Assembly: GCA_963575745.1 (NCBI GenBank)
Contig: CAUYUJ010000114.1
Span: 1,426,001 to 1,490,000, forward strand
Direction of reading: 5' to 3'
DNA: 64,000 bases
DNA from: Prorocentrum cordatum
Taxonomy: Eukaryota
Below, one piece after another: positions 21,093 through 29,075 of this stretch. Position numbers and translations under genes: made by a program. The notes below the pieces were generated by a model, which was not told where the DNA came from, did not search any database, and saw nothing but the letters and a program-made list of their open reading frames with translations. Every line of letters begins with the position of its first letter. Position 1 is the stretch's first letter.

Positions 21093-21457
21093 TCAGAGCT
21101 CCACCCTGCCCACGCTGGGCGCGAACGCGCTGCTCAGCACGCGGACATCCTGGTTCGCGCAGCAGAGCTTCGCGGCATGCCCGGAGGCGGAGCCCGTCAG
21201 CCAAAGCTGCCGCTGCCTCCTGAAGCCGCACCAGCCGGCGCTCGTGATGCTCCACTCCTCGTCGGAGTAGCCCGCGACCACGGTTCTACCCCAGCCGTGT
21301 GTGTACTTCACGCCCGCGAGCTCGAACGTCCAGGTCCCGCGCGGACCGGCGGGCTTCCGCGCCCCCAGGGCGTCGCCGCCGCCGAGCTTCCGGGCCTCGA
21401 AGAACAGCGTCGTGTTCAGGGGCCGCTTCGGCTCCGAGCTCTCGTCGTACAGCATCG
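21093..21457 (-). CDS. Tandem methyltransferase-domain gene, last exon (..MLYDESSEPKRPLNTTLFFEARK...GRVEL*)
   Basis: TLFFEARK parallels SLFVDATK of repeat 1; GAG| acceptor next to the TIR; frame consistent with the previous exon. Confidence 0.8.
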
Positions 21458-21458
21458 C

Positions 21459-22724
21459 TCGGGAGTTGCTAGAAGTGCCCCTGGCCCAAGGTGCCCCCAG
21501 GACTTCTAAGGAGGCCCCCACGGCCTCCAGAGCACCCCTCACGAGGCCCAGAGGGCCCCAGGGGCTCCAATATCCCACCAGCCCTCAGGGCGCAGGTGGT
21601 CTAATGATGTCATTATTTCCTCTTCCAAGGAACCCTTCTACCCCTTCCCCCTACCCCCTCCGCTGGACCTGGACGGGAGGGGCCGCTAGTCGTTGGAGCG
21701 TCCAAGATCGTCCGGCCAATGTTTGACACCCGTCACGAGGATCGTGGCCCCCAAGGGGTGCGCCTCGATCGGGACCCTCCCTCCTTTGATCGATGGCCTC
21801 GAAGATGGCCCCAAGAGGCGCTCCAGGGCTCCCAAGAGAGCCCCAAGAGAGCCCCAAGAGGGCTCCAATAGGGTCCCAGAGGGCCCCAAGAGGCACTCGA
21901 AAGGCCCCCAAGAGGCCCCCGAGCGGCCTTAGAGAGCCCAAGGTGACCTCCAAGATGGTTCAGAAAGCCCAAGCTGGCTCAAGTTGGCTCCCAAGATGCT
22001 CCAAACGGCCCCAAGACCGCTCCAAGAGTACCCAAGAGCGCTCCAAGAGAGCCCCGAGAAGCGGTTTGCTGGCTCCTGAGGGGGGAGCTGAGTTGGGGAC
22101 CCCCCCGTTCTTTAATCGATGGCCTCCAAAAAGATCCCAAGAAGCCTTCCAGGGTTACCAAGAGGGTTCCAAGAGGGCTCAAAAAACTCCCAGAGAGCAC
22201 CAGCAGCAGCAGCAGCCGCAAGGATACCTCTAGATGGTTGCATGAGTCCTCGTCCGTGTCGTCCTCATCCGCGTCCTCGTCCTCCTCGTCCTCGTCCTCA
22301 TCCGCGTCCTCGTCCTCCTCGTCCTCCTCGTCCTCATCCTCCTCCTCCTCTTCCTCCTCCTCCTCCTCCCTCCCCCCCACGCGGCACCCGGGGATGGCCC
22401 GAAGAGGCCTTCCAAGGCCACCCCCTTGCTCGCTTTGTTTCCCTAGATGTGTCTCTTCGTCCCTTTTCCCGTCAGCTCTGAAGGGCAGGGTTTCTGAACG
22501 GGCCGGTGGGGATACTTGTTCGGTCGCGGCCGCGAGACAAGGGTCAGGCGGCGAAAGCAAAGTCCGGGGCACGAACGAGGCTAATTAGCTACAACAGGCA
22601 CAGGCCGGCCGGCCCGCTCACAAAGCAGCCACGAAGCTGAAGCCGGTGGGGATACGCGAAGCGTGAAGAATTGAGCGGAAAGCTGGGGGCATCTTGGGCC
22701 AGCGGCACCTTTAGCAACCCCCGA
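21459..22724 (-). mobile_element. Introner-like element (family G) forming the last intron, enlarged by nested repeats
   Basis: ~42-bp TIR tcgggagttgctagaagtgcccctggcccaaggtgcccccag; 5-bp direct repeat ACGAT/GCGAT; compact relative at ~29458-29596. Confidence 0.85.
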
Positions 22725-22728
22725 ATCG

Positions 22729-22897
22729 TGGTCGACGAGCCGCTGAACAGATCCACGAACGCGAGCTCCGCGGAGCCGCTCTCACCGAAGCCGCGCAGCG
22801 CCACCTCGCGCGGATCGAAGCCCGCCTGGACCAGTGCGGCACGCAGGAGCCCAGCGTCGAAGCCGGAGCGGTGCTCAGCCGACAGCATGCCCCAGGC
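22729..22897 (-). CDS. Methyltransferase gene exon (AWGMLSAEHRSGFDAGLLRAALVQAGF...VDLFS); donor position uncertain (22729-22741)
   Basis: Clear paralogue of VWGLMSDGPQMGYDAGLLRDVLVQAGF in repeat 1; AAG|G acceptor. Confidence 0.85.
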
Positions 22898-23384
22898 CTT
22901 AGACGATGTTGAAAACGCCGAGGGCACATGTATCTGTCTTGAAGATCTGCTCTTTCACACGTTCTTAGACATCGCACCGCCGCCTGCCGAACGCCCACTT
23001 TATGTGGTACCGCTAGGCAGTTTAAACAACAACAACAACAACAACAACAACAACAACAACAACAACAACAACCATTTTAAGGCTGTACGCTCTTACCTGC
23101 CCGCGAGTCATTCAACACGTATACCCTACACCCTCGATACCCGCCCTCTTCGTCTTCGATCACACCCCTTTCGGGGGGATTATTTCTCTTTGCTGGGGCC
23201 GGCGGGCTTAGACGTACGGGCAAACCGGAACGGGCGGACAATCCTTCGGGGGCGTACATCTCTCTGCCCGCCATTGGAATTGGCGCGGGCCCTGCAAGAG
23301 GAGGAGGGGAAGAACGAGGGAGAGTGGGAGGAAGGGGAGGGGGAAGGACGAAGGAAGAGGGAAGATACCACGTTGTGAAGGCGT

Positions 23385-23870
23385 CCTTGGCGCGTGCGTG
23401 GTTCCTGAGCGCCGAAACGCAATTCCAGAATAATTTGTGAGGACGTCGCACGCGAGAGCGCAGTCCTGAGTACATTGTGAGGAAATCTCAAGCGGAAGCG
23501 GGGGCCCTGACTAAGTTGCGAGGAAGTCTCAAGCGGGAGCGCCGTTCCTGAGCAAATTGCACGGAAGTCTCAGGCGGGAGCGGGGGTCCTCACTAAATTG
23601 CGAGGAAGTCTCAGGCGGGAGCGCCGTTCCTGAGTCAATTGCGCGGAAATGTCAGGCAGGAGCGGGGGTCCTGAGTAAAATTCGAAGAAGTCTCAGGCGG
23701 GAGCGCCGTTCCCACGTAAATTGCACGGAAGTCTCAGGCGGGAGCGGGGGTCTTGATTACATTGCGAGGAAGTCTCAGACGGGAGCGCCTTTCCTGAGCA
23801 AATTGCGCGGAAGTCTCAGGCGGGAGCGGGGGTCCTGAGTAAAAATCGAGGAAGTCTCAGGCGGGAGCCG
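23385..23870. repeat. ~40-bp minisatellite (alternating ~79-bp dimer)
   Basis: aattgc..ggaagtctcaggcgggagcg(ccgtt/ggggt)cctgag repeated about 12 times. Confidence 0.9.
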
Positions 23871-27133: not shown

Positions 27134-27288
27134 TGGGGGAAACGAAGGGTATACCGATACCGCCGGTCCACGGACCTCTCCCGAGGTGCGCTCGGACCAG
27201 GACTCCGGGGCGGAGCCCGCGGTGGCGGCGAGGGCCTCCCAGGAGGCCCAAGGAAGGCAAAACGGGGGAAGGGTGCGCACTCCTCTGA
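27134..27288 (-). mobile_element. Introner-like element (family H); GT-AG intron 27133-27292
   Basis: GGTGC 5-bp TSD, body TCAG...CCCA; diverged relatives at ~28185-28332, ~45414-45580 and ~48321-48450. Confidence 0.88.
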
Positions 27289-27292
27289 GCAC

Positions 27293-27448
27293 CGGGAGCC
27301 CTGGGGATGTCGCGGTCACCGCCTTCTGGACCACCGTCGGCCCACCGCCACCGTCGGGCCCGGCGCCTGGGGCCAGGTCCACGTTCAGCCAGCCCGGCAT
27401 GGCGGCCGCGCCGCTCGCACCGACCTGCACCCGGAGCCTGCCGCGCTC
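27293..27448 (-). CDS. Methyltransferase gene exon (ERGRLRVQVGASGAAAMPGWLNVD...SPGLP)
   Basis: SAM-binding motif I region paralogous to domain 2; 156 nt, phase 0/0. Confidence 0.88.
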
Positions 27449-27451
27449 CTC

Positions 27452-28858
27452 TCTGGAGGGGGCACAGAATCAAAGGCCTCGCACATGGGGTCCGAGTGCG
27501 GGGCGCAGCAGGACACTGGTGCTGTGCCTCCTCCCTGGAGGCGTGCGCCCGACCCGAACACATAGAGCACAGCAACATACCAAGCATGTCGCTTCCCGAG
27601 CGGACGGCCAGGAAGCGCCCGCAACGGAGCGTGTACTATCAGATTCCGCGGCGCGCGCGTCGCCCCCAGGGGCATTCCACACACACACACACACACACAC
27701 ACACACACACACGAACACGCAAACACACACACACACACACACACACACACACACACGCACGCACGCACGCACGCACGCACGCACGCACGCACGCACGCAC
27801 ACACACACACACACACACACACACACACACACACACACACACACGCACACACGCACACACACACACACACACACACGCACACGCACACGCACACACGCAC
27901 ACACACACACACACACACACACACACGCACACACACACGCAAACACACGCAAACACACACGCCTAGAATTGGCATGTTCGGGTGACTCAGCAGATGGGAT
28001 CGGCGGATCGCCGCCGCATCGCCGTCGCATCGCCGACGCATCGGGGACGCATCGGCGACGTCGACGGTACATCGGCGCCGTCGGCATGGAGAAAACTGGG
28101 CTACACGTCGAGCCACATCGTCGATGCATCGGCGGTCCGGCGCGATCCTCCGACCCCATTCCCTTCGACCCCATCCAGGAGGCCTAGAAAGAAGGTGCCG
28201 ATACCGCTGCTCCTCCCGACCTCTGCCGGGGGGCGCTCTTGCCAGGATCTCGAGGCGCATCCAGCCCTGGCGACGAGGGCCTCCCGGGGGCCCCCCAAAA
28301 AGCCAAAACGAAGCAAAGCGGCGGTCTCGGCATCTGTTCCTCCTCCTGCGTCGCCCCCTGGCGTTGAAGTCATAACTCGGCTCTCCTGCGGCCGTTTGGG
28401 GCGACGATCTGCCCCCCCCCCCCCCCGGAACGCTCCCGGCGAGGCGCAGCCGCTGGAGGGCACCCCCCGAGGCTGGCAGACCGCCGAGGAACTGCGAGAA
28501 CGTCAGCACACGACCTGCTCCCCCCTCTCGCCATCGCTCGGACGTCCATTCCGTGTTTTTTTCGATTTCGTGAGTAGCTCTTTCGCCAACTGATCGAGGA
28601 TGCTCCTCGATTGACGAACCAGCAACACACACCCGTACCCATAGGGGGATCGGAGAGGGCTATGGGTGCGTGTTGTCGGATGGGGGTTCCCCGCTCGAAC
28701 GGGAGCGTTCCCCAGGGTCCGACAACCCGCACCCATACCCATAGCCAGTCCTCCTCCCAACGACCCCCCTATGGGTATGGGTGTGTGTTGTTCGTTCGTC
28801 CTCGATGGTCCTCGCCGAAGAAAAAATGCACACGTCCGAGCGATGCCGAGCCCTCGGA
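27452..28858 (-). mobile_element. Introner-like element with multiple nested insertions; GA-AG intron 27449-28861
   Basis: GAGGAG 6-bp TSD; ends TCCGAGGG...CCCTCCAGA; splicing gives LPAELRADEERGRLRVQVG, gap-free against LPEDLHRQAEQGALKLQVG. Confidence 0.8.
28527..28850. mobile_element. MITE family A with MITE family C nested at 28612-28800
   Basis: TIR catcgctcggacgt; empty copy at ~48776-48887; insert flanked by ctcgat/ctcgat. Confidence 0.88.
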
Positions 28859-28861
28859 CTC

Positions 28862-29075
28862 CTCGTCCGCCCGCAGCTCGGCGGGCAGCGCGGCCAGCTG
28901 CGCCGCCGTCTGCGCGCCCGCCCGCGCGCGCACGCGCGCCGCGTAGCGCCGCAGCTCGGCCCTCGCCGCGTGCAGCGACGCCAGCGCGGCGGGGTCCACG
29001 AGGTGCGCCGCCTCGCCGCGCGCGCCCCCGTAGCCCTGGCTGCGGCCGCTCGCCGGGCGCTGCCAGAGGTGCCCC
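28862..29075 (-). CDS. Methyltransferase gene exon (..AARAELRRYAARVRARAGAQTAAQLAALPAELRADE); acceptor unresolved
   Basis: Paralogous to RAADALRVFDGHVRELAAAHTAAHVRALPEDL preceding domain 2. Confidence 0.7.

Follow-up and report, generated by a model that had tools for sequence, protein, structure and literature searches.

Border repeats and inverted-repeat elements at the introns of a tandem methyltransferase-like gene of Prorocentrum cordatum

We analysed a 64-kb stretch of the Prorocentrum cordatum genome (contig CAUYUJ010000114.1, hereafter the window), in which a minus-strand gene at 21.1-29.1 kb yields, once its exons are joined, a single open frame with two tandem methyltransferase-like repeats. 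Six inserts, numbered I1 to I6 in gene order, interrupt this frame, each between two copies of a short direct repeat. We conclude, with a probability of roughly three in four for the explanation as a whole, that the locus is a transcribed gene whose product has two tandem Methyltransf_11-like domains, and that several kinds of non-autonomous element entered its coding sequence after the internal duplication, creating introns by way of their target-site duplications (TSDs). The first-pass annotation of this DNA had gone further and taken every resolvable intron to look like a transposon with TSD-derived splice sites. That view stands for I3 and I4, which are well supported as mobile insertions whose TSD supplies the splice sites. 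Judging from their sequences, I1 is plausibly another such insertion and I6 is clearly a transposon, though not one that can be spliced out exactly; a transposon origin of I2 and I5 is unproven.

Border repeats, splice sites and reading frame

Five of the six inserts begin with the very 5-7 nt that open the next exon, as an exact direct repeat (coordinates are those of the plus strand of the window; the gene and its parts lie on the minus strand). I1 (27449..28861, 1413 nt) is bordered by GAGGAG at 28859-28864 and 27446-27451, I2 (27133..27292, 160 nt) by GGTGC at 27289-27293 and 27129-27133, I3 (26768..26935, 168 nt) by TAGGCT at 26933-26938 and 26765-26770, and I4 (25381..25618, 238 nt) by GGTAC at 25615-25619 and 25377-25381. 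The repeat of I5 (22898..25349, 2452 nt) is GGCCTGG, 7 nt exact, or GGCCTGG(A/G)GC, 10 nt with one A/G mismatch, at 25341-25350 and 22889-22898. The exact slide lengths of I1 to I5 are thus 6, 5, 6, 5 and 7 nt. At I6 the repeat reads ACGAT/GCGAT in gene orientation, 5 nt with one mismatch, at 22725-22729 and 21454-21458. The direct repeats reported earlier at six inserts were therefore all found again, exact at five of them.

The splice sites of I1 to I5 lie in or against these repeats. Their donors are GA, GT, GC, GT and GC, respectively, all within the upstream copy. The acceptor AG falls within the downstream copy at I1 and I3, and at I2, I4 and I5 its A is the final base of the insert and its G the opening base of the repeat. 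The proposed scheme of a donor in the upstream repeat combined with an AG acceptor was thereby borne out for these five introns. All five fit the arrangement G|GH...AG|GH, where H is any base except G.

Repeat lengths were compared with a null of pseudo-introns of equal lengths, sampled outside the low-complexity parts of the window; a first, unmasked null was dropped because microsatellites inflated it. Among 20000 pseudo-introns with GH..AG ends, the probabilities of a repeat of at least 5, 6 and 7 nt were 0.0115, 0.004 and 0.001. Under the strictest null, which takes G|GH..AG|GH with an identical H as given (n=596), these probabilities rose to 0.26, 0.10 and 0.037, and the product across the five introns (slides 6, 5, 6, 5 and 7) is about 2.5e-5. 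The border repeats of the gene thus far exceed in length what chance would give.

Removal of each insert together with one repeat copy left the protein free of gaps at 6/6 junctions, when aligned with the other internal repeat and with five relatives (about 35% identity). This upholds the earlier claim that exact removal restores the frame. The phases of I1 to I6 are, in order, 0, 0, 2, 2, 0 and 2. The first three introns split only methyltransferase repeat 1 and the last three only repeat 2, and each is missing from the paralogous internal repeat of the same gene.

The coding sequence between the inserts can be followed from a partial exon E0 (28862..29105), whose frame is open and continuous with that of E1 once I1 is removed, to a stop codon at 21093-21095. 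E1 (27293..27448) is supported by its open frame, alignment to relatives, tblastn and contig coverage, and both E2 (26936..27132) and the 31-nt E4 (25350..25380) by open frame, contigs and alignment. E3 (25619..26767), which lies between these two, covers the close of repeat 1, a linker and the greater part of repeat 2. E5 (22728..22897) takes its low end from the public gene model and would reach 22725 if I6 were exactly removed; the last exon (21093..21457) bears the C-terminal motif of the family. A tblastn search with the relatives gave no match upstream of E0. Directly upstream of E0 stands a (GGA)n array of about 60 copies (29117-29301), open as poly-Ser in the E0 frame, which may be either coding or intronic.

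The Pfam model Methyltransf_11 matched the largest exon weakly, at 17.7 bits for a cut-off of 21.2. The same family, PF08241, was found at E<=0.001 in 19 of 20 aligned sequences, the sole failure being the exon of the window itself. No second copy of the gene occurs within the 64-kb window, and a protein search for longer fused forms gave no match; at near lengths the search returned P0001 alone, a public model of this very locus.

Element anatomy of the inserts

To score terminal inverted repeats (TIRs), the 70 nt at one end of each intron were matched in inverted orientation against the 70 nt at the other end, and 300 shuffles served as control. The scores of I4 (29.5) and I6 (32) were reached by 0/300 shuffles each, and that of I3 (12.5) by 1/300. 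In these three inserts, no more than 0-2 nt separate the inverted termini from the flanking repeats. Since the TIRs of I3 and I6 start directly inside the repeats, and that of I4 no more than a base or two away, there is no room for an older intron around the element. TIRs, a flanking TSD, small size and non-coding content, the features of miniature inverted-repeat transposable elements (MITEs), are found together in I3, I4, I6 and element B, which is nested in I1.

I3 is a small inverted-repeat element with the layout TAGGCT|TCGCCATGGGG...CCCATGGTGA|TAGGCT, in which the inverted termini abut the 6-nt duplication and both splice sites (GC..AG) lie inside it. Its RNA has a 14-bp terminal stem (fold z -4.45), and partial relatives occur at 33080-33161 and 20327-20392. 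I4 (GT..AG) is a nearly full-length palindrome, CTCTGG...CTAG, with a hairpin fold z of -11.2 and relatives at 4093-4225 and, inside I1, at 27964-28188. The copy at 4093-4225 is flanked by CGC/CGC and I4 itself by GTA/GTA, a pattern that points to a duplication of 3 nt and to an AG at the element's own end. The GGTAC border of I4 is thus probably made up of the duplicated GTA and the terminal bases of the element, with the GT donor sitting in the duplicated GTA and the terminal AG supplied by the element. One metagenome match to the inverted-repeat core of I4 was similar over only 24-34 nt and was judged to be chance.

I6 is an element of 1266 nt (21459..22724) with 42-nt TIRs that are 88% complementary. 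On the plus strand it is flanked by ATCGC (21454-21458) and ATCGT (22725-22729), and the TIR begins right at the flanking repeat. A third arm of this family stands at 29555-29596. A scan of viral contigs with the inverted-repeat motif of I6 gave 0 matches, as did a scan with that of element B.

I1 (GA..AG) is a composite repeat. Its 5' part is similar to a copy at 48754-48901, the similarity stopping at 28859, beside the border repeat, and its body (27500-28488) is collinear with 45033-45715 at about 65-69% identity. A third partial copy of the 5'-end element, 88% identical over 49 nt, is seen at 51556-51599. Nested in the intron are a (CA)n microsatellite (27678..27960), the I4-type palindromic copy (27964..28188, 70-79% identity to I4) and element B (28612..28800). 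The last is an inverted-repeat element with 40-nt TIRs, whose arms at 28613-28652 and 28761-28800 are 90% complementary, and with a CTCGAT duplication (6-8 nt); a second copy lies at 49212-49384 (86% identity). In the paralogous copy, the insertion site of element B is empty (48841-48848), and CTCGAT is duplicated at the filled site. This pair of filled and empty sites is direct evidence of transposition at the locus.

No terminal stem was found in I2 (GT..AG), and its core resembles 28198-28310, 45512-45550 and 3813-3843. I5 (GC..AG) contains an 82-nt tandem repeat (23424-23868, 5.4 copies, 82% matches) and long (CAA)n arrays, and its BLASTN matches are internal only, with no relative elsewhere in the window. 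Two similar modules precede the (CAA)n arrays, at 24000-24061 and 24789-24852, and point to either an internal duplication or sub-elements with tails.

A short palindromic motif (GGGCCTCC..GGAGGCCC) occurs in several elements, at 27219-27262, 28255-28290, 45512-45550 and 3813-3843. In one run, a contig matching 27229-27262 lifts the bin depth to about 600, and the motif is for this reason probably very abundant in transcripts.

BLASTN matches at E<=1e-5 outside their own sequence were obtained within the window for 5/6 introns (I1, I2, I3, I4 and I6), one more than the four elements for which relatives had been claimed. Most are partial, at 69-92% identity, and several connect introns of this very gene. 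Relatives are thus dispersed in the window though it holds no second copy of the gene, which supports mobile elements. A Pfam search of 12 open reading frames within the introns found a transposase, reverse-transcriptase or transposon domain in none of them (0/12), which argues that the elements are non-autonomous; the one sub-threshold match, to BUD22, lay on a low-complexity acidic stretch. The suggestion of about six different mobile families was reduced to three or four, because I2 and I5 have no TIRs and their ends are unmatched in the window.

Elsewhere in the window, where the majority of 2-kb bins have a GC content of 58-70%, a 1.9-kb degenerate (CATCAT)n array (41956-43817) and a 340-nt (CTC)n array (44139-44476) account for a low-GC, strongly skewed bin at 42-44 kb.

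Transcripts and public gene models

Reads and contigs of four sequencing runs (X1, X11, X17 and X23) were placed on 25300-27660 only, so that I1, I5 and I6 are spanned by no read or contig. X17 is a polyA RNA run and X23 a stranded run, whose exon reads all fall on one strand, as expected of minus-strand RNA. X1 and X11 are not recorded as RNA runs, and their intron-less contigs were accepted as transcripts by size and content. The transcript is present in runs from at least eight studies.

The predicted junctions of I3 and I4 were recovered exactly. A 168-nt skip with 6 nt of ambiguity marks I3 in contigs of X1, X11 and X17, and a 238-nt skip with 5 nt of ambiguity marks I4 in one raw X23 RNA read and in contigs of X1 and X11. 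I2 was seen in two forms. The predicted 160-nt GT..AG skip is carried by one 65-nt X11 contig, and a 167-nt skip by a 2015-nt X1 contig and one X11 contig. The longer skip is a GC..AG intron after a one-base shift (27133-27299), with its donor 7 nt upstream, and shifts the frame that homology marks as coding.

Evidence on the other introns comes from contig ends and from public models. The match of the X1 contig to the genome ends at 25343/25344, as the predicted I5 junction requires, given that 25344-25349 equals 22892-22897; the same junction is present in the public model P0151. Near I1, one contig ends at 27451. Beyond I5 the X1 contig runs for 544 nt; by arithmetic, it would end about 15 nt after the stop codon if I6 were spliced, and, with I6 retained, within the (TCC)-rich repeat of that insert.

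Exact removal of I6, that is, of the element and 5 nt, would join ...SSTT to MLYDESSEPKRPLNTTLFFEARK, which aligns with the C-terminal motif of the family, and only this removal would join the frame of that motif in the last exon to E5. No GH..AG pair can yield it. P0151 is reproduced by one junction only, an intron of 1270 nt at 21458-22727 (GA..AG; element plus 4 nt, a +1 shift), which is known from the public model alone. To enter the last exon in frame by this junction, P0151 must read E5 in another frame. With the same junction, the methyltransferase frame would run into a 58-codon tail and lose the motif. Because its target offers no in-register GH..AG pair, I6 is either spliced one base off or retained.

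The public annotation divides the gene into two models, both of which extend into I4. P0001 (376 aa, 25492-26767) starts inside E3 and runs into I4, as an unspliced reading of the locus. P0151 (224 aa, 21093-25520), an unnamed P. cordatum product that is identical to part of the gene, begins within I4 and takes E4-E5 in a frame other than that of the methyltransferase. We conclude that the public models misrepresent this gene.

Origin of the introns

In the mechanism that we propose, the internal duplication would have come first, followed by insertions of several kinds of non-autonomous element into the coding sequence. Each insertion would have duplicated its target, by about 3 nt at I4, 5 at I6, 6 at I3 and I1, and possibly 5 at I2 and 7-10 at I5. 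The dinoflagellate spliceosome accepts GT, GC or GA as donor and needs little beyond AG followed by G as acceptor; with such permissive needs, a target that starts with or contains G-H would provide a donor from its upstream copy. At I1 and I3 the acceptor would be that of the downstream copy, and at I2, I4 and I5 the element's own end would provide it; the element with one copy of the target would then be excised precisely, the frame being kept. At I3 and I4, pairing of the inverted termini in the RNA could draw the splice sites together. I6 would be an insertion of the same kind into a target without an in-register GH..AG pair. We infer that insertion made the introns, as opposed to elements landing in older introns, and that I1, I2 and I5 would each be a single mobile insertion.

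Several observations weigh against this explanation. In the TIR test, I1 scored 10, a value reached by 29/300 shuffles and not significant, and neither I2 (score 7, 238/300) nor I5 (score 7, 216/300) has a TIR. The window relatives of I2 and I3 span their cores and not their ends. Related copies number 2-3 per family in 64 kb, none of them shown to be an intron of another gene, and the I4-like copy nested in I1 has no visible flanking repeat. The comparison of filled and empty sites demonstrates mobility for element B only, not for the elements that form introns. Certified RNA support is confined to X17 for I3 and a single X23 read for I4, and in the longest transcript contig the I2 donor lies outside the border repeat. 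In addition, exact border repeats of 2-9 bp are general in dinoflagellate introns (PMC5032977), so that part of each repeat here reflects the G|GH...AG|GH consensus.

The gene could instead be a decaying copy overrun by transposons, in which the "introns" are insertions tolerated by a pseudogene and the transcripts are mostly unproductive. The I2 form of the longest contig, which shifts the frame, would be expected of such a copy, and so would the +1 shift at the sole recorded I6 junction, which cuts off the conserved C-terminal motif; the division of the locus into two public models reading into I4 and the sub-threshold Pfam match of the exon point the same way. We consider this unlikely, since every exon is open, the restored protein retains the family-invariant residues across both repeats, a productive I2 junction also exists, and the transcript recurs in runs of at least eight studies.

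For I1, I2 and I5 only, staggered double-strand breaks repaired with captured filler DNA could have produced repeat-bordered introns with no transposition. Break repair is said to leave flanking repeats at new introns in Daphnia. These three introns have no TIRs, a fragment of the I2 core recurs inside I1 and at two other places, and no coding capacity was found in the elements, all of which is compatible with filler DNA. This origin is nevertheless doubtful: the end of I1 coincides with the end of another copy of the repeat, as for a discrete element, and the repeat lengths are within the 3-8 nt range of TSDs at dinoflagellate introner-like elements (ILEs; 10.1101/2020.10.14.339549).

It is distinctly improbable that the border repeats are merely a general splice-signal or consensus feature of old introns in which elements landed later, as could be argued from the identical 2-9 bp repeats that Mendez et al. 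2015 (PMC5032977) reported for all introns of a gene array in Crypthecodinium, from the fit of I1-I5 to G|GH...AG|GH and from the clearly composite nature of I1 and I5 (nested repeats, microsatellites), because the joint probability of the repeat lengths is low even when that consensus is granted, the inverted termini of I3 and I6 abut the repeats so that the whole intron is the element, no intron is common to the two paralogous repeats, and Roy et al. (10.1101/2020.10.14.339549) trace the GH conserved after the acceptor back to TSDs.

Insertion of non-autonomous elements, the explanation that we prefer, agrees with a mechanism already published for dinoflagellates, the Introner or ILE model, and is not new. 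Roy et al. (10.1101/2020.10.14.339549), who studied Symbiodiniaceae and Polarella, described ILEs that create introns, with TSDs of 3-8 nt giving the donor (GHNN, GHN6) or both sites (AGGH), 15 classes in Polarella, and GA donors enriched among recent gains. The introns described here resemble those ILEs in being whole-intron, non-autonomous elements (I3, I4 and I6, with one end of I1 coinciding). They share with them a donor from a GH-starting TSD, GA and GC donors, several TSD classes per genome, and an acceptor taken from the element end, or else both sites taken from an AGGH-type TSD, as in I3 and I1. They differ in their host, Prorocentrum, and in that I6 has no in-register splice pair.

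In P. cordatum itself, the genome paper (10.1101/2022.07.25.501386) reported introns enriched in introner elements, found by pattern search only, with inverted repeats (8-20 nt) and direct repeats (3-5 nt) close to the intron ends as the criteria; at the present locus of the same species the public models mis-annotate the gene. The IRIB pattern of Mendez et al. (PMC5032977), identical repeats of 2-9 bp at both borders of dinoflagellate introns, is present in I1-I5, where the repeat likewise occurs once in the mRNA and the (A)GG is conserved. The IRIB account describes a pattern without an origin, whereas three introns here show a transposon anatomy that explains it. Amoebophrya introners (Farhat et al. 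2021, PMC7789003) have end-pairing inverted repeats and short direct repeats overlapping the exon-intron borders, as here, but are mostly non-canonical, in contrast to the GH..AG splice sites of this gene. Gozashti et al. 2025 described tens of introner-made introns within single Amoebophrya genes; Prorocentrum goes unmentioned in their main text and in the 12 supplementary files searched, out of 14.

These findings leave the known picture unchanged. What the locus adds is an internal empty-site control, a mix of TSD classes in one gene, a competing donor at I2 and an out-of-register insertion at I6. As a case of transposons making introns it is compact and well controlled: the gene's own duplication stands in for empty sites, and in three elements target duplication and inverted repeats are seen together in full. 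The published mechanism is thereby carried over to a bloom-forming species whose genome is large and GC-rich. I2 and I6 indicate that insertions are not always cleanly removed, which bears on the cost of intron gain.

We tentatively raise the possibility, which falls short of a conclusion, that P. cordatum harbors an uncatalogued diversity of intron-making families comparable to that of Polarella, and that this locus catches intron birth at several stages. If so, at least four TSD classes (3, 5, 6 and nested 6-8 nt) would be assembled in one 8-kb gene. I3 and I4 would be clean introns, I2 would be one in which a cryptic donor in the exon still rivals that of the TSD, and I6 would be spliced one base off at the cost of the C-terminus of the second domain. 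The gene would then offer a direct view of the selective filter that decides which insertions become introns.

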